Shown here piece after piece: positions 1-8,202 of a stretch of 9,238 nt of DNA (the first letter of the stretch is position 1; every line of letters starts with the position of its first letter). The stretch is from IMG/VR virus record IMGVR_UViG_2703718854_000002; one strand, 5' to 3'. Both the position numbers and the translations under genes were made by a program. The stretch is from a virus (Duplodnaviria; Heunggongvirae; Uroviricota; Caudoviricetes). The notes under the pieces were generated by a model that had not been told where the DNA came from, made no database searches, and saw only the letters and a list, made by a program, of their open reading frames with translations.

Positions 1-798
1 TTAATGAACATTCGTCGCCGAAAACGAGTCTGTATCATTAGCGTGATGCAGTCTCTGCAAAGGATCTTGTTGATAAAATTGGCAGAAACGTTGCCACAAT
101 GAAGGGAAACGAGGAGCAAAAAGTTCTGGGGCGCTAAAGAAATATTCAGAAAGTACGGCAAAACATTCAGCAGGATCGCTGGCTGCATAAGCATCAATGC
201 TCGCCGCATTCTCGCCAACCAATTCGATTTCTTCCTGAATGTTGTTCATTGCAGCATGAAGATCGTGTTCCCAGCCAGCAACCTCACGCAACGGAATAAA
301 GGGAACTCCGCTGGCGCGATCGCCGTTACGGGTGTCCAGCTTATGAGCGACTTCATGAATAATCAGGTTAAAACCAGAAGCATCAAAAGAATCTTGTATA
401 TCCAACCAGTTCAAAACGATAGGCCCTTGCTGCCAGCTCTGACCTGACTGAACAATACGTTGGTTATGCACCAGACCGATATCGTCTTCCCATTCATCAT
501 CGACCACAAATGGCGCAGGATAAATTAAGACTTCATGAAAACCATCCAGCCATTCCAGTCCTAACTCCAGAACGGGTAGGCAAAATAGAAGTGCTATCCG
601 GCAGCTTCTTAATGAATCCAGTTCAAAGCCCTGTAAAGGAACAAGCCGCTTTTGCTGTAAAAAACGTTCGGCAAGAGTGACTAATTTGCTTTGTTCCTGT
701 TCCGTCAGACACGTTAAAAGGGGGATCGATAGTGCTTCCTGCCAGGGAAGGGCAGTTTGATGTGCTGATTCTTGTACTTTCCAGGGCCACTTAATCAT
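1..798 (-). CDS. mtfA: MtfA (Mlc titration factor A), zinc-dependent peptidase
   Basis: Minus-strand ORF with TAA stop at 1-3. Product begins [11 protein letters not shown] and carries an HEVAH (HExxH) zinc-peptidase motif; recognised from memory as enterobacterial MtfA/YeeI. The ORF track extends to 837 ([13 protein letters not shown]-), but the conserved N-terminus starts at the ATG at 796-798. Confidence 0.85.
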
Positions 799-891
799 CG
801 TTTTGCTCGCAAACTCGTCACTTGAACAAAATTGCACGGACAGGGACTGTTAAAATGCCAAATTTCCTGGCATCATGGCAACCATCTGAAC

Positions 892-981
892 GGAGAGATG
901 CCGGAGCGGCTGAACGGACCGGTCTCGAAAACCGGAGTAGGGGAAACTCTACCGGGGGTTCAAATCCCCCTCTCTCCGCCA
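892..981 (+). tRNA. serU: tRNA-Ser (anticodon CGA), class II tRNA with long variable arm
   Basis: 90 nt. 7-bp acceptor stem GGAGAGA (892-898) pairs with TCTCTCC (971-977). Anticodon stem CCGGT/ACCGG encloses loop CTCGAAA, giving anticodon CGA. T-arm is GGGGG-TTCAAAT-CCCCC, followed by discriminator G and encoded CCA (979-981). Confidence 0.9.
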
Positions 982-1027
982 CTATTCAATCACTTACAGT
1001 GTTTCGATTCAGTGACCAACATCCCGT

Positions 1028-1061
1028 TGAGAAAAAATGAGAAAATCCACTGAGAAAAAAT
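1028..1061. repeat. Short direct repeats TGAGAAAA(AA)T, three copies starting at 1028, 1038 and 1051, between tRNA 3' end and integrase stop
   Basis: Read directly: tgagaaaaaat at 1028-1038, tgagaaaat at 1038-1046, tgagaaaaaat at 1051-1061. Location fits an attL-proximal arm region; function not established. Confidence 0.3.
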
Positions 1062-1096
1062 AACGCCAGATTTGCACCCGGCGCTGTATCTCAAAC

Positions 1097-1777
1097 TCAC
1101 ATTTTTCTGTTTAAAGTTGGGCTAATTTTTACTTTCCTGTCGTATACCAACACCTGTGATTCAGTTTTGTGACCACTGAATTTTTGCTTATCACGGCCAC
1201 TTCCTTCATAGTCAGAAATGCCTTTCGCCTTCAGATCATGGAACGTGCAGTCTAACGGTCTGCCAATTTTTTCAGCAGCCGCATTCCTAGCCTTTCTCCA
1301 GGCTTCATTGAAACCTTTATAGGAATATCGCTCTCCGTACATGGTTTTGATGACAGCGCCATCTTCCCCTGATTTCCTGCAAAGATTGACAGCGGAGTGC
1401 AAGCGGTCTGTCCACGCTTTAATCTGCTTAACTCCAGTTTTACCCTGTTGAATGAAAATTCCTTTATCCATTATCTGATTCCAGTCCATTTTCAGAACAT
1501 CGGAAACCCTCGCTGCACAGAGATAAGCAATTTCCATTGCGGCTTTTACCGGATCAGTAGCACAGTCATAAATTGCTAAATACTCTTCATCCGTAATGTA
1601 TCGGTCGCGCTGAGGTTTAGGGTATTTATCGACGCCTACGCATGGGTTGCCTGGCACAAATCCACGTTGATATCCCCACCTGTAAACGCGTGACATCGAA
1701 CTATGCTCATGGTTAGCCTGTACGGATGCAATGAAAGAGTTCGGCATCACTGAACCAAAAGATAAGGCGATGTTCAT
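1097..1777 (-). pseudogene. int: Lambda-family tyrosine integrase, C-terminal catalytic domain only (N-terminally truncated remnant)
   Basis: Product aligns by eye to the lambda Int catalytic domain: RDRYITDEEYLAIYDCA, CAARVSD (Arg I), GKTGVK (Lys), FHDLKAK (His present, Arg II position is Lys), GHKTES (His II), LVYDRK (Tyr). An in-frame stop (tca at 1781-1783) lies two codons upstream of the ORF-track Met. The first ~27 residues (1697-1777) are antisense to the endolysin 5' end, so integrase-derived sequence begins near 1696. No room for arm-binding or core-binding domains. Confidence 0.7.
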
Positions 1778-2261
1778 TGCTCAGGTAGGACATGAATCGG
1801 CGGGATTCTCTGCGCTGGTGGAGAACTTCAACTACACGCCTGCCGCATTACTGACGACGTTTGGACGCCGGGTAACGAACTACCAGGCCTCAATGCTTGG
1901 ACGTGCCAACGGTAAGCCAGCAAGTCAGGAAGCTATCGCGAACCTGGTATACAGCAACCGCCTGGGTAATAAAGCTGCTGGTGATGGCTGGAAATACCGT
2001 GGGCGCGGATTAATTCAGATTACCGGTCTCACCAATTACCGTGATTGCGGCAATGGTCTGAAGCTTGACCTGGTTACTAACCCTGAACTGCTGGAGAAAG
2101 ACATCAATGCTGCGCGTTCTGCTGCATGGTTCTACGCCTCCAAAGGTTGCCTGAAGTACACCGATGACCTGGTGCGCATCACTCAGATTATCAATGGCGG
2201 TCAGAACGGCATTAACGACAGACGCGTGCGTTACGGCAAAGCGAAAGCGGTGATTGCATGA
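1731..2261 (+). CDS. Phage endolysin, glycoside hydrolase family 19 (chitinase-like lysozyme)
   Basis: FIAQVGHESAGFSALVENFNY carries two Glu spaced as in the GH19 catalytic pair, and YRGRGLIQITGLTNY follows. It closely resembles Salmonella phage SPN1S-type endolysin as I recall it. The frame is open only from 1686 (stop taa at 1683-1685), so ~25-30 N-terminal residues of the full-length family member appear lost. Stop overlaps the next start (ATGA at 2258-2261). Confidence 0.75.
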   Translation: MKEFGITEPKDKAMFIAQVGHESAGFSALVENFNYTPAALLTTFGRRVTNYQASMLGRANGKPASQEAIANLVYSNRLGNKAAGDGWKYRGRGLIQITGLTNYRDCGNGLKLDLVTNPELLEKDINAARSAAWFYASKGCLKYTDDLVRITQIINGGQNGINDRRVRYGKAKAVIA

Positions 2262-2530
2262 GCATTGTAGAAATCATCATTGGTGTCATTGGTGCTATCT
2301 GTGTTGCCGCTGCTGGTGGGTTTGGTCTTGGCCATATTCGCGGAACCAGCAAAGCAGAAGCGAAAGCCGATCAACAACGCACTGAAGAAAACGCAGCGGC
2401 GAAGGTTGCAGTGGCAGAACGTCAGGCAGAAGTCACCAGAGAGGCCAGTAATGTACAGCAGAAAGTTAATCATATGCCTGGCGACGACGTTGATCGCGAG
2501 CTGCGCACAAACTGGACCCGTAAGGGTTGA
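2258..2530 (+). CDS. Rz-like i-spanin (N-terminal TM helix plus charged coiled-coil region)
   Basis: ATGA overlap with endolysin stop. Hydrophobic N-terminus IIIGVIGAICVAAAGGFGLG followed by Ala/Glu/Lys/Gln-rich segment. Position immediately after endolysin is typical for Rz. Confidence 0.5.
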   Translation: MSIVEIIIGVIGAICVAAAGGFGLGHIRGTSKAEAKADQQRTEENAAAKVAVAERQAEVTREASNVQQKVNHMPGDDVDRELRTNWTRKG

Positions 2531-2681
2531 GGTAGTCGATACGGCGTGCGACTGGGTTCATCCTATCTATGCAACAGATAATGACTGGGATGTGTTGGAT
2601 AAGCAGACCAAGCGCGACATCCTGACGCATAACAAAGCGTGGCAGGCAAATTGTCAGAAGGAGAAACTCGAAATCAAGTAG
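2451..2681 (+). CDS. Rz1-like o-spanin lipoprotein, +1 frame, overlapping and extending beyond Rz
   Basis: ATG at 2451 preceded by GAGAGG (2439-2444) with 6-nt spacer. Signal peptide MYSRKLIICLATTLIASC with lipobox IAS|C. Starts inside Rz and ends 151 bp after it (overlapped, not embedded, architecture). The ORF track's longer 2280 start is a TTG in the same frame. Confidence 0.5.
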   Translation: MYSRKLIICLATTLIASCAQTGPVRVEVVDTACDWVHPIYATDNDWDVLDKQTKRDILTHNKAWQANCQKEKLEIK

Positions 2682-3049
2682 CAAAGCGGTTAGACCGCAG
2701 CCGAAAGGCAATGCAGCAGTAATGATGCTGCCCTGAGTCGCCATTGAGCGAGCCTGTATAGCGACGGGTCAAGGTTCTTATATCAAAATAAGCTCCGGTA
2801 GAGCAGCGCGAACGCCAGACGCGCACCGGTTATAAGCGGCGATGAAGCGACAGCAACTCAAGGGCATGAGCGTGGCCACTCCGGGAAGTGGTGAGGCATT
2901 TAAATGCAGCCTAGATAATTAGAATGGGAATGTTTTATGAAAAACTTATTCAGTACATCAGATGAAATGCTAATGAAACGATCGTCTAATGTTAAAAGAC
3001 AAGAGCTGCTTGAGATTTGCAACCGATTCGTATGTTTCTCGTTTGTTAA

Positions 3050-3075: not shown

Positions 3076-3609
3076 CTAATTTAAAGGAGCAATCGGGTCT
3101 GTCTTCGAATTCGCAGCGAATTGAATTAATCCAATCATAGTTGCACGAATCTTATCAAACTCTCTGGTTTTAACTACCTCGGTCATAGCTGCTGTAACGT
3201 CGACATTTGAAGAGCAAAAGCCTTCTTTTGTCGGAATCGAAATCTGAACGGTCATCCCATTTGCAATTGAACTGCTTAAAACACGTAAAGGCTCTGGATC
3301 AAGCAATGTAGTAACTTGACCATCATTTACTGGCTGAAAGCACAGAGCTTTGCCATCGAAGCGAATAAGAACACCACAACGATCAGGCCTCATTTCCGGA
3401 CCGATACCTAAAACTCTCCATCCGCAGTACCACGTACGACATAGAGATGGGCGATCATTATAAATCGAACATCCGCCCTGTGCTTTAAGATGCTGACATG
3501 GCACTCCAGCAAATTTTTTAAGCTCTGGCTCTTCGATTCTCAGGGATTTACAACAAACAGAACATGAACCACATTTTCTATCTTTGATTAGCAATTTTTC
3601 CAGACTCAT
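3076..3609 (-). CDS. YkgJ/UPF0153-family cysteine-cluster protein (CxxCxxCC putative Zn/Fe-chelating domain; FliB-like)
   Basis: N-terminal CGSCSVCC (exact CxxCxxCC), then C-QHL and GGCSIYNDRPSLCRTWYCGW, matching the YkgJ-family pattern as I recall it. Strong SD AAGGAGG 8 nt upstream of the ATG at 3609. The C-terminal ~90 residues have no motif I recognise. Confidence 0.55.
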   Translation of the reverse strand: MSLEKLLIKDRKCGSCSVCCKSLRIEEPELKKFAGVPCQHLKAQGGCSIYNDRPSLCRTWYCGWRVLGIGPEMRPDRCGVLIRFDGKALCFQPVNDGQVTTLLDPEPLRVLSSSIANGMTVQISIPTKEGFCSSNVDVTAAMTEVVKTREFDKIRATMIGLIQFAANSKTDPIAPLN

Positions 3610-3811: not shown

Positions 3812-4108
3812 ATGGCATCCAATTCACCTTGGCATAGCCTCTACAATTCCAAGCGTTGGTACCGACTCCGCTATCACCAGCTTCAGAAGCAACCTCTTTG
3901 TGAGTTCCACCTCCGGCGCAATCAGGTGATAGCGGCAACGATCGTTGACCATGTCATCCCGCACAAAGGAGACGATAGGCTCTTTCATGATCCGGATAAT
4001 CTTCAGTCACTTTGCAAACGTTGCCACGACTCGGTAAAGCAGAGGATGGAGAAGGGCGGAACGGTCATGGACAGCTACAAGGCGCTCATTGTCAGGAACA
4101 AAGCTTAA
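3812..4108 (+). CDS. Phage HNH endonuclease
   Basis: C-x-F-H ... VDHVIPH ... N-LQSLCKRCH pattern (HNH beta-beta-alpha metal finger with flanking Cys/His). RBS-like GAGGGAG upstream of ATG 3812. Small HNH proteins are typical of lambdoid packaging modules. Confidence 0.6.
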   Translation: MASNSPWHSLYNSKRWYRLRYHQLQKQPLCEFHLRRNQVIAATIVDHVIPHKGDDRLFHDPDNLQSLCKRCHDSVKQRMEKGGTVMDSYKALIVRNKA

Positions 4109-4763
4109 TATTAATAATTCAGGTGGTTTAGGCCAAATATCATTTACAACGTCAATAGGAAAAGAAGTTGGCATCGCTCAAATAAACTATACCGGAACCT
4201 CTACGCCTCTTGTTATCGGCTCAGGGGGTACTTTAAACCCTAATGCTATTTTCTTCTTCACAAACCCGACAGTGACAAGTGAAAATGGAGGAGTTCAATC
4301 TTTTCAGATTTACAATAATCAGGTATTACCTGGTGTTGCAAGTTCACAGTCACTAGGGAGCGCGTCGTTTAGATGGACACAGCTGTACGCAGATACAGCA
4401 ACAATCAGTACATCTGATATAAGAAACAAGACCGATATTGTTGATATAAATGATATAGAAAGGAGGGTCGCAATAAGACTGAAAGGACTCATTCGGCGAT
4501 ATAAGCTTAAAAATGCCGTGATGAGCAAGGGAAATGACAAAGCTCGTTACCATATTGGAATAATTGCGCAGGAAGTTGAGAAAGCCTTTGCAGAAGAAGG
4601 ACTAAATGGTTTTGATTATGGATTGCTTTGTTATGACTCATGGGGCCATGAATCTGTGCTTTACTCTGAAGATGGGGTGATACAGAAGCCAGAAATTATT
4701 GCCGGAGAGGGGTATTCAGTTCGCTATGAAGAATTGCTTTGTTTTATAATATCAGCCATTTAG
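4089..4763 (+). pseudogene. Tail fibre/tailspike C-terminal fragment with intramolecular chaperone (peptidase S74-like) domain
   Basis: STSDIRNKTDIVDI...RYHIGIIAQEVEKAFAEEG resembles the autoproteolytic C-terminal chaperone domain of phage tail fibres. The frame is open only from 4038 (stop taa at 4035-4037) and the only start is a TTG at 4089, which overlaps the HNH gene, so the N-terminal part of the fibre is absent. Confidence 0.5.
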
Positions 4764-4808: not shown

Positions 4809-5795
4809 TTAGACGACTCTTCGCAAAATCGGTATTGCAGTAAATATTTTAACAATGATAATTGAAGATGCAATGTAAAATACTGCTGCCAGAGGAATAC
4901 CCCATACATAATTTGTAATTGGTAGGTACTTCCATGAAGTGAAAATAATTATTGGGTGAACTAGATAAATGCCAAATGCATGCTTTGAAATTATTTTTAT
5001 TATTGGGCTTGTCAAATCAGCTAAATTCTTAGCATAACCAATGCAAGCAAATGTAGTACTTATCGCCGTAATAGCTACCATTGGGCTGAAGTTCTTCAAG
5101 CTCATTCCTTGGTATTCACCATGAACTATCCCTTTATTAACATAAATGGTAACAACGGAAAGTGTCAATGAAAGGAGAGCAAATACAATCCTGTACTTAA
5201 TTATTAAATCTTCCTTGCGTGCAGCTATGTAACCTGCAAAAACATAGAGCATTAAATAACTTGCAAATGGAACGTTTATCTTCGGAGCGGGTATTCCTAT
5301 TGCATTAAGCTCTGGGTATAAGGATGTGCTGTAAAACAGAACTGCGAATATCAAAAGGCTATAGCGCGTTCTTATTTCTCTACATCCCATAACTATCATT
5401 GGAACAAAAAGATAAATTGCAATGTAATCGTACATAAACCAAAGGTGTATGCTTGATGGTTTCATAGGGCTAAAACTATCTATGCCTGCATTTTTAAAAA
5501 GTATCAAATATGCTGCGTAAATTACCCACCAAAACGCCAGTGGAATTACAAGGAGATTTATTCCTTTAAGGATGAAGCCTTTAAACTCAATTTCTTTATT
5601 TGCATAGAGAAAGCCAGTTATGACAATGAAAATACCAATGCATTGTTTCGATATTGCGCTGTAAATATTGGCCCACTCCCAGTCAGGAGCGAGTTTAGCC
5701 CCGAAAGGTCCGGCACTGGCATGTAGTAAAACTACCAGCAATATAGCAATAAAACGTGCAACTACAACTCCGTTATTAATGTCTGTTTTTGCCAT
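4809..5795 (-). CDS. Acyltransferase-3 family integral membrane O-acetyltransferase (Oac-like O-antigen acetylase)
   Basis: 328-aa polytopic membrane protein. N-terminus VVVARFIAILLVVLLHASAGPF carries the R-x(n)-H motif of the acyltransferase-3 family. Same strand as, and immediately downstream of, the gtr cluster. Visibly AT-rich coding sequence. Confidence 0.7.
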   Translation of the reverse strand: MAKTDINNGVVVARFIAILLVVLLHASAGPFGAKLAPDWEWANIYSAISKQCIGIFIVITGFLYANKEIEFKGFILKGINLLVIPLAFWWVIYAAYLILFKNAGIDSFSPMKPSSIHLWFMYDYIAIYLFVPMIVMGCREIRTRYSLLIFAVLFYSTSLYPELNAIGIPAPKINVPFASYLMLYVFAGYIAARKEDLIIKYRIVFALLSLTLSVVTIYVNKGIVHGEYQGMSLKNFSPMVAITAISTTFACIGYAKNLADLTSPIIKIISKHAFGIYLVHPIIIFTSWKYLPITNYVWGIPLAAVFYIASSIIIVKIFTAIPILRRVV

Positions 5796-5827
5796 TTAGA
5801 TCAGCCCACTAATGAGTTTGCAAAGGT

Positions 5828-5851
5828 GATGCCAACAAAAGTGTTGGCATC
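5828..5851. repeat. Perfect 24-bp palindrome GATGCCAACA-aaag-TGTTGGCATC in the gtr-type/acetyltransferase intergenic spacer
   Basis: Read directly from the sequence: 10-bp arms, 4-nt loop, 8 nt downstream of the glucosyltransferase stop and 33 nt upstream of the acetyltransferase start. Confidence 0.6.
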
Positions 5852-5858
5852 AAAATAA

Positions 5859-7277
5859 TTAGTTCACTATAACAATTGCTTGTCCATTTCGCTCTTTCAA
5901 TATCATGTTTTGAGCGTTGAATCTCACAGTTCCATCTGATTCTATTTTTTTACAACCAGAATCGCACGGGTAGATACTATACCCCAGTTTTAAATGGGAG
6001 ACTTTATCCATGAAAGGATTGCCAGTATAGAAGTATCTATTCATATTGTATATGAAAGGAAATGCTTTTCTGTATGGTTCTGATGCTGAACTGGGTTTGT
6101 TTATTTTTAGATAAATTTTCTGGTAATCTTTATTTTGCAGCGATAAGACTGCATTTGTACGCATTAAGACATTATCAATTCTGGAATAATTTATATTTTG
6201 AAGCATGAAGAAACAGCTTACAAAAATAAATGATATTACCATCGGCACAACTGATACCCAATCAAGCCTTTTAAAGGTGATATTAGTAAAAATAATCATT
6301 GTCGATGCCATGATTATCACTCCGCCCGAAACCATAGAACGACTGGTCACTGGTGGATTTTTTAGAATCAGTAGCATGCCAAAGGAAAGGAAGATAATAA
6401 ACAAGTAAAAAACAACACTCGTTAATTTTACAGGCAAGCTTAATCCTTTTTTTAATAAAATCACAGCAAAAGGAAGCGTAACATACAAAAGTAAAATTTT
6501 TCCTATAAACCCATGGAATAAATCATAAAAGATTTCCTTGAATTTAAGATAGGAGGTGAACATGTTTTTTAACGTATACATGTCAATGCCCAGCATTTCA
6601 GAGCGCATCTTTGTATACTCACTCATATCATCGGGGTTAAAAATCACCTTCTTGTATAGTGCGTATGCAACAAGCATTAGAACGCCAGCAATGACGCAAA
6701 ACTTAATAGCACTAAAAATAGTTGCTTTACCTGACATCATGCTGTGTATGGCTAGTATCAATATAATTGATAAGTATACTGCAATAGATGACTGATAAGA
6801 TGAAATTGCCAGTATTAGCAGAATGAATGCTGTAGCATAAAAGAGCTTTGAAGAAACTCCGAGATAACAGTAGTACGCTGCCATCGCAGCCATGCCTACA
6901 GATGCGGACATCAAAATTGCATCATACTGATAGGCAAGATTATTTATAAAAAATGGGGATAGTAAAAGTGATAAAGAAAATGATGCTTTCGCAAAACTCA
7001 ACTCGCTACCAAAAAATACACTGCTGATTTTGTGTGCAGGGTAAATGAGGAACAGCGCTGCAATCATCATAGTAAATGGAGATAATATTAGAATATGACC
7101 GTTGCCAATGAGATTAGACAGGACTGTTGAAAAATATCTACCATTATGATCCCATCCATATGGTATCTCTATACGCAAAAAATCATCTACGTATAAATGT
7201 CCACCGATAATGAAAGGGAGCACATATAAAAAACCAACAAACAGTAAAATTCCTAAATTTTTAGAATCGTTAGTCAT
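5859..7277 (-). CDS. Serotype-specific O-antigen glucosyltransferase (GtrC/Gtr-type family), polytopic membrane protein
   Basis: Large, AT-rich multi-TM ORF immediately downstream of gtrB in a gtrA-gtrB-gtr(type) arrangement. Start chosen at ATG 7277 (MTNDSKNLG-), which has AGGA 9 nt upstream; the ORF track's longer start is ATG 7295 (MSGKTAM-), which lacks an SD. Either way it overlaps the gtrB 3' end. Confidence 0.65.
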
Positions 7278-8202
7278 TGCTGTCTTTCCTGACATTTTTT
7301 AGAACATATTTTGGACGTTGTTTGGTTTCAATATAAATTCTGCCGATATATTCACCTAACACACCGATTCCAATCAACTGTATTCCGCCAAGGAAAAGGA
7401 TTGAAACAAGGAGCGAAGGGTAACCACGAACTGGGTTGCCAAAGGCAAGAGTGTTTACAATCATCCACGCGCCATATAAAAAAGATAGACCGGCAACAAA
7501 CAATCCAATGTATGTCCACATCCTCAGCGGGAATGTGGAGAAACTTGTTATACCTTCAAGTGCTAGGTTCCACAACTTCCAGCCGTTGAATTTAGAATCA
7601 CCTGCGACACGTTCAGCACGCACGTATTCTACAACATCAGTTTTTCCGCCAACCCACGAAAGAACCCCCTTCATAAATAGATTTCTTTCGGGTAGCTGTT
7701 TGATATTCTCTACGACCTCTCGTGACATCAGACGGAAGTCACCAACATTCTCTTCAATTTTTGGATTGCTGATTTTATTATGCAGCTTATAAAACCACTC
7801 AGCAGATTTCCGCTTTAAGCGGCTGTCAGTTGAACGGTCTGAGCGCTTAGCCAACACCATATCTGCACCAGCCTGCCATTTTTCGATCAGATTAGGAATG
7901 ACCTCTATTGGATCCTGAAGGTCGACATCAATCGGGATAACCGCTTCACCAGTGGCATGATCAAGGCCAGCGAAAAGAGCTGGTTCTTTACCGAAGTTTC
8001 TGGTGAAGGATAAAGGCATAACAAGCGGATCAGCAACGGCAAGTGCATTAATAATAGATTCGGTCGCATCTTTGCTGCCGTCATTGATGAATACTATCTC
8101 TACTTCATGATTTTGAAGTTCTTCAAATTCACGAACCGTTTTATAGAAGATCGGTATTGTAGCCTCTTCGTTAAATACCGGAACGACAAGAGAAATCTTC
8201 AT
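7270..8202 (-). CDS. gtrB: Bactoprenol glucosyltransferase GtrB (GT2 family)
   Basis: [14 protein letters not shown]-terminus, DVDLQDP (DxD) motif, two C-terminal TM segments. ATGA start/stop overlap with gtrA at 8199-8202. Confidence 0.9.

Follow-up and report, generated by a model that had tools for sequence, protein, structure and literature searches.

Recent deletional decay very probably explains a holin-less GH19 endolysin and spanin remnant in a gtr/oac-carrying prophage at Escherichia coli serU

The DNA analysed (9,238 nucleotides, hereafter the window) contains the remains of a lambdoid prophage inserted at the tRNA-Ser gene serU of E. coli, in which a truncated GH19 endolysin gene is followed by Rz and Rz1. 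Very probably, this arrangement arose when a prophage with gtr/oac genes recently decayed by deletion, and its lysis genes are most likely silent and harmless passengers. This is ordinary gene decay, and not a new system. The original prediction described an N-terminally clipped endolysin with both catalytic glutamates, coupled to Rz and followed by an Rz1 with a good Shine-Dalgarno (SD) sequence and lipobox, the 5' end of the endolysin being cut at a deletion junction, with an integrase remnant and no holin upstream. This anatomy was confirmed in every element and the proposal of simply recent decay was upheld, while the suggested domestication found no support and the description of the arrangement as unusual was too strong.

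The prophage attachment site is tRNA-Ser(CGA), serU (892-981, + strand), as identified by ARAGORN and the Rfam tRNA model. An att repeat of about 81 bp was found, positions 917-996 recurring at 93.8% identity about 130 bp past the right end of the window (attR, 17637-17717 of comparison locus L005). The serU att repeat, the truncated integrase, genes in phage order and fuller relatives at the same site identify the element as a cryptic prophage. Beyond the lysis genes it carries a gene for a 177-aa CxxCxxCC-motif protein (3076-3609, - strand; phrog_9155), which lies between lysis and packaging genes in the sibling alleles too, and an HNH endonuclease gene of the packaging-associated type (3812-4067, + strand; Pfam HNH, phrog_2323). 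The last 12 or so codons of the latter are replaced at deletion junction 2, which has the microhomology GGTCA (4063-4067); the window equals sibling locus L016 up to 12418 as far as 4067, and sibling locus L017 from 12888 onwards as of 4063. The deletion has taken out the head and tail genes that lay between HNH and the tailspike. The C-terminal 233 or so codons of the 812-aa tailspike follow, including the Peptidase_S74 chaperone domain (4063-4763, + strand). The O-antigen modification cargo (4809-8561, - strand) is intact, as assessed from its ORFs and the Pfam labels of the identical L005 genes, and comprises acyltransferase_3 (oac, 4809-5795), a GtrC-like glucosyltransferase (5859-7295), GtrB (7270-8202) and GtrA (8199-8561), all on the - strand. 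This cargo is likely the reason for the persistence of the remnant.

The gene upstream of the endolysin (1097-1724, - strand) matched Pfam PF00589 (Phage_integrase) and corresponds to the C-terminal 209 or so codons of a 329-aa tyrosine recombinase. Up to position 1724 it is 98.4% identical to the intact integrase of E. coli CUWW10. The called ORF has 226 aa (1097-1777, - strand), its first 17-18 codons being antisense endolysin DNA (1725-1777). Blastn against L017 and direct reading of the sequence placed deletion junction 1 at a 4-bp microhomology, TACG (1721-1724). Window positions 1-1724 match L017 6083-7806 and positions 1721-2534 match L017 10072-10885, both at 100% identity, and 2,269 bp (L017 7807-10075) are missing. 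On the integrase side the deleted DNA comprises the last 23 nt of the truncated integrase of L017, a DUF550-like remnant and a truncated DUF968 gene; the rest consists of a Q-like antiterminator gene, the late leader/terminator, holins of 131 aa and 93 aa and endolysin codons 1-24. In L017 the integrase is already cut, just 23 nt further on, and fused to the DUF550-like gene. One deletion at this microhomology linked endolysin codon 25 to an integrase that had been truncated before.

Carrier loci were collected by exact match to the truncated protein, and 24 contigs with it, taken from assemblies at NCBI, ENA and Logan, were read. The junction DNA was identical in 10 of 10 comparison loci. The 46-nt junction had no exact match in the species-representative genome collection, and the arrangement was absent from all 5,426 complete E. 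coli genomes searched. The truncated allele is a strain-level one.

The endolysin ORF (1731-2261, + strand; 176 aa) was assigned to the SPN1S-type GH19 enzymes by Pfam, PHROGs and sequence comparison. It matched Pfam Glyco_hydro_19 (PF00182) with E = 2.8e-10 and 40.8 bits, above the cut-off of 25.5, and phrog_181 endolysin with E = 2.3e-75. Relatives at 90% identity or more are 203 aa long and begin with MNQSQFQQAAVISAGLAARWFQPITDA-MKEFGIT; therefore the ATG at 1731 is the native Met28, and residues 1-27 are absent from the product. In the DNA, codons 25-203 are kept (tblastn of these residues matched 1722-2258 at 100%) and codons 1-24 are gone. The frame is open upstream to 1686, with no ATG, GTG or TTG in that stretch, and the SD-like sequence upstream of the 1731 start is limited to GGA. 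MKEFGIT as a natural start was rejected on the length of these relatives and on the solved-structure alignments, which extend N-terminally. GH19 lysins of 182-194 aa do exist among PDB entries.

The window ORF has an incomplete GH19 domain, the N-terminal helices (residues 1-27 of 203-209) being affected. Residues 16-27, approximately, align in three of five solved GH19 endolysin structures and residues 22-27 in a fourth; the fifth, 7r6s, aligns from residue 27 only. W20 is invariant in the endolysin family alignment (A1). It appears that a conserved N-terminal helix of the endolysin has been lost. The catalytic residues E49 and E58 (SPN1S numbering) are E22 and E31 of the 176-aa ORF, placed in the motifs GHES (residues 20-23) and VENFNY (residues 30-35), and they align with E51 and E60 of the Pseudomonas aeruginosa endolysin PaGH19Lys. 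E49 is the proton donor and E58 the base (PMC8547705, for SPN1S roles and numbering; roles also in PMC12329726). None of the 26 shared GH19 core positions (40-196 in SPN1S) has been lost. The 176-aa endolysin could be active, if made and folded.

The Salmonella phage SPN1S endolysin (PDB 4OK7) represents a GH19 subfamily with an inserted 3-helix peptidoglycan-binding module. Identity to it is about 66% over the whole 176-aa ORF, and the full-length sibling protein matched 4OK7 in phmmer with E = 1.5e-81, with the same E49/E58 pair and the same core positions. Unlike SPN1S, the window gene has lost codons 1-24, the native start, the ribosome-binding site and the holin, and it lies in a dead prophage.

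The endolysin stop and the Rz ATG overlap in the sequence ATGA (2258-2261), which confirms the coupling described in the original prediction. Rz (2258-2530, + strand) encodes an i-spanin of 90 aa, which is full length for its family (homologues of 89-92 aa; phrog_1026, E = 3.3e-31, covering 1-89 of 90 aa). Its N-terminal hydrophobic segment shows a hydropathy peak of 2.43 at residue 0, in MSIVEIIIGVIGAICVAAAGGFGLG; this membrane segment, a helical periplasmic part and the position of the gene directly after the endolysin agree with an i-spanin. Rz1 (2451-2681, + strand) encodes an o-spanin of 76 aa in the +1 frame (phrog_1275, E = 9.8e-31, profile positions 4-73 of 81), shares 80 nt with the 3' end of Rz and extends 151 nt beyond it. 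An SD sequence, GAGAGG, is found 6 nt upstream of its start, and a lipoprotein signal was read from the sequence as MYSRKLIICLATTLIAS/C (...LIAS/C). The lipobox cysteine, the +1 frame and the start within Rz are those of an o-spanin. Rz and Rz1 form a predicted two-component spanin of overlapped architecture. Summer et al. (2007) reportedly divided spanins into embedded, overlapped and separated classes. Overlapped spanins are of the P2 LysB/LysC type. As in that pair, the +1-frame Rz1 gene begins within Rz and reaches past its end, with a membrane segment in Rz and a lipobox in Rz1. The two proteins differ from the spanins of lambda or P2 in their short length (90 and 76 aa) and in their PHROG families (1026 and 1275), which are not those of the lambda or P2 proteins.

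When Q and both holins of the sibling allele were used as tblastn queries, none was found in the window (best E 0.5-7), and no fragments of the deleted DNA were detected elsewhere in it. Nor was a displaced holin found in the window, adjacent to the endolysin or at a distance, by tblastn, by PHROGs or by scanning every small ORF for hydropathy; the hydrophobic small ORFs were all Rz, GtrA or shadow ORFs. The holins are located in the segment of the sibling alleles that is deleted here. Compared with a canonical holin-endolysin-spanin cassette, the adjacent holin is missing, and so are the Q-type antiterminator and the late promoter/leader, both of which are deleted. A scan for the sigma70 consensus gave no such site on the + strand between 800 and 2258, and a hairpin at 1062-1085 has a T-run on the - strand only. 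Read-through from serU, which is on the same strand, into the lysis genes may occur.

The alleles at the same mtfA-serU locus were compared. Loci L015-L020 contain Q (DUF1133), a 131-aa holin, a 91-93-aa holin, the 203-aa GH19 endolysin (e.g. EEW1607143.1) and Rz, and strain MLI106K4 contains a complete related prophage at serU (int ... Q, holin, holin, GH19, Rz, Rz1, HNH, terminase ...). The sibling alleles are 100% identical to the window at the nucleotide level from endolysin codon 25 through Rz, and have the mtfA-serU-int left flank in common with it; L015 and L017 also share the tailspike-oac-gtrCBA right flank. The siblings retain what the window lacks, namely the Q-like gene and late leader, the pair of holins and the first 24 endolysin codons; some of them have lost the 3' end of Rz1 or have other deletions. 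L015 and L017 lack the Rz1 3' end and the head genes instead, and other siblings show independent losses of Rz1, head genes or part of the tailspike. Two loci, L007 and L012, have the int-lys junction of the window and yet keep the head genes, and therefore junction 1 predates the deletion at junction 2.

Divergence among these loci was minimal: 0-1 SNPs were found across 16 loci in 1,301 bp around the lysis module, and no more than 2 SNPs over 5-9 kb between loci. For L005-L014 the endolysin identity is partly by construction, since these loci were fetched by exact protein match. Differences of 0-1 SNPs in 1.3 kb across alleles are too few to give power to detect selection, and the intact ORFs most likely reflect recency and not selection. 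The truncated allele was indexed in 57 blocks of the assembly collection, and the full-length sibling protein was read on 24 contigs. The former is not rare, and it has persisted through at least three later rearrangements.

Based on these observations, the following course of events is proposed. The immunity/replication region and part of the integrase were already missing from the ancestor. Then 2,269 bp went in one microhomology-mediated step, which fused the integrase remnant to endolysin codon 25 and took away the Q-like antiterminator with the late promoter/leader, the two holins and the start of the endolysin. Left over were codons 25-203 of the endolysin together with Rz and Rz1, and these ORFs are very probably intact only because the deletion is very recent. 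The lysis genes would no longer be transcribed from a phage promoter, the endolysin would have neither a proper start site nor its conserved N-terminal helix, and without a holin the cytoplasmic enzyme and the spanins would be unable to act. With holin, promoter and proper start gone, the lysis genes would thus be neutral passengers beside the plausibly selected gtr/oac cargo. Points against this reading are the retained GH19 core, the possible read-through from serU and the frequency and persistence of the truncated allele.

The loss of Q and the holins may itself have been favoured, as it would remove the lethal part of a cassette that was no longer under repressor control. The stronger version of this idea is that the deletion spread by selection and not by neutral decay, Q and the holins being the sole lethal parts of a repressor-less late operon and the endolysin and spanins being spared as harmless. 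This is considered improbable. It would agree with an L017-like ancestor, in which the integrase remnant and short DUF550-like and DUF968 fragments are followed by Q-holin-holin-lys with no immunity region, with a deletion whose extent is exactly that of Q and the late leader, the two holins and the start of the lysin, and with a deleted allele that is seen in no fewer assemblies than the undeleted one. However, undeleted Q-holin alleles persist in several strains and so are not strongly deleterious, the other deletions at the locus strike non-lethal genes equally, and a single event cannot tell selection from drift.

It is very unlikely that the host has domesticated the truncated endolysin (residues 1-27 missing), Rz and Rz1 and uses them for lysis or vesiculation, in response to envelope stress or to a trans-acting holin of another prophage. 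Such a role would be compatible with three intact ORFs, with the retention of the catalytic pair and the core positions, and with an allele that occurs in many assemblies and has outlasted later rearrangements. There is also a precedent in the P. aeruginosa pyocin cluster, where a GH19 prophage lysin is used by the host (PMC12329726). PaGH19Lys (PA0629 / PA14_08160 region, R/F-pyocin cluster) is likewise a GH19 endolysin accompanied by putative spanins, and the chromosomal element that encodes it is not a phage; it is full length and regulated, acts together with the holins Hol, AlpB and CidA, and its phenotypes have been demonstrated (PMC12329726). None of these properties applies to the window lysin, and the Pseudomonas case retains its holins and its regulation. 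Moreover, the near-zero divergence from holin-bearing alleles accounts for the intactness, and no conservation beyond recency was seen. Q, the late promoter, both holins, the native start, the ribosome-binding site and the conserved N-terminal helix are all gone, with no promoter-like site upstream. Siblings lose the Rz1 3' end instead, which shows that Rz1 is dispensable there and that the module is not retained as a unit; in addition, none of the 5,426 complete genomes has the arrangement. A more specific version, in which the genes are transcribed (e.g. by serU read-through), the enzyme folds and the three products constitute a holin-less, stress-dependent device for lysis or vesicle release, is still harder to credit. 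The same low expectation applies to such a device acting when a co-resident prophage supplies a holin or pinholin in trans, or when the inner membrane is damaged. Finally, there is next to no chance that misassembly produced the int-lys junction or that the short ORF is a naturally occurring short form in this family, which apart from the shorter GH19 lysins in the PDB is a formal possibility only, as the same junction occurs in independent NCBI, ENA and Logan assemblies on contigs of up to 2 Mb, the close relatives reach 203 aa and integrase antisense precedes codon 25 in the DNA.

Calling the arrangement unusual was an overstatement. A cytoplasmic endolysin and spanins do no harm when the holin is missing, and cryptic prophages often contain orphan lysis genes, as exemplified by rzpR/rzoR in the Rac prophage of E. 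coli K-12. The lysis remnants in the K-12 cryptic prophages include essD-rrrD-rzpD/rzoD in DLP12 and rzpR/rzoR in Rac, and Qin contains others. As in the window, they are lysis genes of defective lambdoid prophages, including spanins without a working holin-endolysin pair, and are passively retained. In contrast to the window, they encode lambda R-type or T4-type lysozymes and are older and point-mutated. The window remnant is free of mutations because it is recent.

The lysis finding carries little weight in itself, but it offers a clean and datable case of prophage decay by microhomology deletions, in which Q and the holins, as the lethal parts in control, are lost and the harmless parts stay, together with the useful gtr/oac O-antigen cargo. 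It also calls for caution, as in a remnant this young intact ORFs are uninformative on function. Among the serU sibling alleles the stages of decay are covered with unusual completeness and all junctions are known to the base, so that the series could be of use in population studies of prophage erosion.

A conserved structured-RNA candidate of about 218 nt (2683-2900, + strand) was observed directly 3' of Rz1, outside the lysis module. A protein-coding reading of this element was rejected on account of 1-nt indels between copies. It had no match in Rfam 15 at gathering thresholds or at E ≤ 1, and no HK022 or HK639 record was among the BLAST matches. By description, it differs from the Pas sRNAs, which occur in Escherichia/Shigella only and nearly always beside capsid or tail genes. 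Its single-sequence folding energy was unremarkable on both strands (z = -1.04 and -0.85), and the case for an RNA therefore comes from covariation only, the support for which was strong. The candidate is present in many lambdoid phages, at three operon positions, and is a by-product of more value than the lysis finding.

The left end of the window is E. coli chromosomal DNA carrying mtfA (1-837, minus strand), followed by the tRNA-Ser(CGA) gene serU (892-981, plus strand), and all the DNA to the right of serU is a prophage remnant integrated at this gene. The attR repeat, an 81-bp copy of window 917-996 with 93.8% identity, was located in identical loci approximately 130 bp past the right end of the window. 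The leftmost gene of the remnant was called as an integrase fragment (1097-1777, minus strand). It is followed by the GH19 endolysin ORF, Rz and Rz1, a 177-aa CxxCxxCC protein (3076-3609, minus strand), an HNH endonuclease gene (3812-4108), the C-terminal third of a tailspike gene (4089-4763), and an acyltransferase plus gtrC-gtrB-gtrA O-antigen modification cluster (4809-8561, minus strand). This layout fits a defective prophage. Orphan lysis genes in remnants of this kind are a familiar finding, for instance in E. coli K-12.

The 176-aa ORF at 1731-2261 was identified as a GH19 endolysin (Pfam PF00182, E=2.8e-10; phrog_181, E=2.3e-75), 65-73% identical to the enzymes of Salmonella phages 118970_sal3, ST64B, epsilon15 and SPN1S. 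It is of the same type as the SPN1S endolysin (PDB 4OK7), but lacks the complete N-terminus of that family. In the 203-aa members of its 90%-identity cluster, MNQSQFQQAAVISAGLAARWFQPITDA precedes MKEFGIT, where the window ORF begins. MKEFGIT is thus not the family start, ATG 1731 corresponds to the native Met28, and the predicted product is short by 27 residues (13%), which puts a figure on the N-terminal clipping claimed in the original prediction. No stop interrupts the frame upstream as far as 1686, the position from which that prediction had counted the module, and this stretch has no ATG, GTG or TTG; further upstream than 1724 the DNA is not endolysin. The only SD-like sequence ahead of ATG 1731 is GGA. 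Within the lost part, residues ~16-27 (LAARWFQPITDA) align in three of five solved GH19 endolysin structures, and residues 22-27 in a fourth, and W20 is invariant among close relatives. Both catalytic residues were indeed found to be retained: E22 of the ORF corresponds to the proton donor E49 and E31 to the base E58, in the numbering and with the roles given by the GH19 Engineering Database (PMC8547705). They align with E51 and E60 of Pseudomonas PaGH19Lys, in which the E60Q replacement abolished activity (PMC12329726). The shared GH19 core, 26 positions between 40 and 196, falls wholly within the retained part and, since this conserved core is complete, some residual activity of the truncated enzyme is conceivable. 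The truncated protein has already been deposited under the name 'glycoside hydrolase family 19 protein' (e.g. CDP75436.1).

The endolysin is coupled to Rz through an ATGA overlap of stop and start codons (2258-2261). Rz (2258-2530, 90 aa) matched phrog_1026 'Rz-like spanin' over its full length and its relatives have 89-92 aa, showing that it is not truncated. Rz1 starts at ATG 2451 in the +1 frame, 6 nt downstream of GAGAGG, and ends at 2681, 151 nt beyond the Rz stop. It carries the lipoprotein signal MYSRKLIICLATTLIAS/C, and its phrog_1275 match begins at profile position 4. At the sequence level, the pair has the features of an overlapped two-component spanin, including the SD and lipobox anticipated for Rz1.

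The 5' end of the endolysin gene is cut at a deletion junction. In complete E. coli genomes, the left-flank match ends at window 1720-1724, inside an integrase gene, and endolysin homology begins at 1727-1728. A look-up of the exact 203-aa sibling led to other E. coli in which the yeeJ-mtfA-serU site is likewise occupied, by loci encoding a Q-like DUF1133 protein, holins of 131 aa (Phage_holin_8) and 91-93 aa (Phage_holin_3_7), the 203-aa endolysin and Rz. One of these holin-bearing alleles, L017, matched the window with 100% identity in two arms, L017 6083-7806 corresponding to window 1-1724 and L017 10072-10885 to window 1721-2534. The arms overlap by TACG, a 4-bp microhomology with mismatches on either side as read at both L017 sites; therefore, the window allele is an L017-like ancestor minus one 2,269-bp deletion. 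The lost segment contained the 3'-terminal 23 nt of an integrase gene that had been truncated before, a DUF550-like early-gene remnant, a fragment of DUF968, the Q-like gene, the Q-to-holin spacer with a strong terminator-like hairpin (late leader), both holin genes and endolysin codons 1-24. The called 226-aa 'integrase' (1097-1777) is a chimeric ORF whose first 17-18 codons are antisense to endolysin DNA; of the 329 codons of the integrase gene it retains about 209, without those for the arm-binding N-terminus. The integrase truncation and its fusion to the DUF550-like gene predate the 2,269-bp deletion. As the integrase N-terminus and the excision genes are lost, the remnant is presumably locked in place.

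When the holins and the Q-like protein of the sibling allele were compared with the window by tblastn, noise only was obtained (E 0.5-7), and no piece of the deleted DNA was found elsewhere within the window. Its hydrophobic small ORFs are, without exception, Rz, GtrA or shadow frames. The orphan module was thus confirmed in every structural detail, including the missing holin; it is real, correctly described and ordinary. The window lacks Q and the late leader as well as the holins; with neither holin nor late control, the unit is not a canonical lysis cassette. A consensus scan of the plus strand detected no sigma70-like site at 800-2258. The hairpin at 1062-1085 has a T-run on the minus strand only, and weak read-through into the module from serU may occur. 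A non-secreted endolysin gains access to the wall only through a holin, and spanins have no effect as long as the wall is intact. From this established phage-lysis biology, the endolysin, Rz and Rz1 genes would be harmless and could persist neutrally.

Domestication and recent decay had both been proposed to explain the module. The nearest model for the former is a domesticated GH19 lysin from the pyocin cluster of Pseudomonas, which, in contrast, retains its own holins and regulation (PMC12329726). Over 1,301 bp around the module, 10/10 junction-bearing loci were identical, the six holin-bearing loci varied by 0 or 1 SNP, and alleles were at most 2 SNPs apart over 5-9 kb. The endolysin identity among the junction-bearing loci (L005-L014) is partly by construction, as they were fetched by exact protein match; this does not apply to the identity in Rz/Rz1, in the flanks or with the holin-bearing siblings (L015-L020). 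Since nearly no substitutions have occurred after the deletion, ORF integrity is uninformative on selection. The deletion itself might have been favoured by removing the lethal part, given an ancestral remnant that still had Q and holins yet lacked an immunity region; undeleted alleles persist as well, however, which makes this a minority view.

Decay at serU is not limited to this event. Strain MLI106K4 carries a complete related prophage there, in the order int, xis-like gene, early genes, Q-like gene, two holins, GH19 endolysin (209 aa), Rz, Rz1, HNH, terminase, and head and tail genes. Q, the holins and the entire endolysin are still present in L015 and L017, in which a deletion starts in the middle of Rz1 (window 2534) and stops shortly before the tailspike. 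L016, L019 and L020 have a different left junction and are preserved from Q to the head genes, and in L019 the connector genes are also joined straight to the tailspike. In these three loci the integrase homology ends at window 1648, followed by a block of ~786 bp (L016 7451-8236) without match in the other alleles or related prophages examined. L007 and L012 have the int/lys junction of the window, yet terminase, portal, protease, capsid and connector genes are present, joined to the acyltransferase by another deletion. The window type (L005, L008, L009, L010 and L014) carries a second deletion, between HNH codon ~85 and tailspike codon ~580, at the 5-bp microhomology GGTCA (4063-4067). The int/lys deletion is the earlier one, because L007 and L012 share it without the second. 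This second event removed all head and tail genes, and fused the HNH gene, whose final ~12 codons were replaced, to the C-terminal part (~233 codons) of the 812-aa tailspike gene. The serU locus is eroding independently in several sublineages.

The acyltransferase_3 (oac-like), gtrC, gtrB and gtrA genes are all intact, which suggests that the remnant is retained for this O-antigen modification cargo. The cargo is also disrupted elsewhere, by an IS within gtrC (L006) and by IS1 in gtrB (strain CUWW10). The 177-aa protein has a CxxCxxCC metal-binding motif, a Pfam PF03692 match slightly below cut-off and a phrog_9155 match (unknown function). Its moron-like gene opposes the late operon between lysis and packaging genes, and is reduced to 105 aa in L006, L011, L016 and L019. 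At the right end (8677-9238, plus strand), between gtrA and attR, there are two small ORFs: one of 79 aa (phrog_3893, unknown function) and another running off the window end, of at least 111 aa here and called as 106 or 111 aa in fetched loci. A related region is labelled 'DNA polymerase V' in E. coli annotations.

Two bases past the Rz1 stop begins an element of ~218 nt (2683-2900, plus strand), a candidate new structured RNA with strong covariation, possibly described earlier in the wider literature. A search of Rfam 15 found nothing, also with the cut-off relaxed to E<=1. Fifty-six copies sharing less than 94% identity were aligned with MAFFT, from which RNAalifold derived 8 helices with 36 pairs; 98.3% of the cells hold standard pairs. 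Compensatory double changes were found in 17 pairs, compared with 5.9 +/- 1.5 in column shuffles (0/500 reached the observed count) and 4-5 when partners were slid, the structure being scored on the same alignment that yielded it. Many G-U pairs are valid on the plus strand only. The single-sequence folding energy is unexceptional (z about -1), and the invariant CACCGGTTAT.AGCGGC stretch is a consequence of the search pattern. A protein-coding element was ruled out, since one-base indels separate the copies.

The element is 80-93% identical to unannotated DNA of unrelated phages, namely vB_EcoS-733R5, two Stx2c phages, Hafnia yong1, mEp213, Klebsiella RothC/D and Providencia PSTCR7lys. Among 5,426 complete E. 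coli genomes, 115 carry it. In IMG/VR, at least 120 contigs matched a 16-base pattern taken from the element, and a profile search recovered it, mostly full length, in 119 of the 120 matches listed. It was never annotated where found, and its carriers include several cultured lambdoid phages of Escherichia, Klebsiella, Hafnia and Providencia. Always co-oriented with the surrounding operon, it occupies three kinds of position: directly past Rz1 in GH19 cassettes, as in the window; in the interval from Q to the lysis genes; and past cI (or cI/rexAB), directly upstream of the next early gene (annotated N-like in mEp213). These positions fit operon leaders as well as classic moron insertion spots, and the leading guesses for its role are a cis-acting transcript element or a phage-borne trans-acting RNA.
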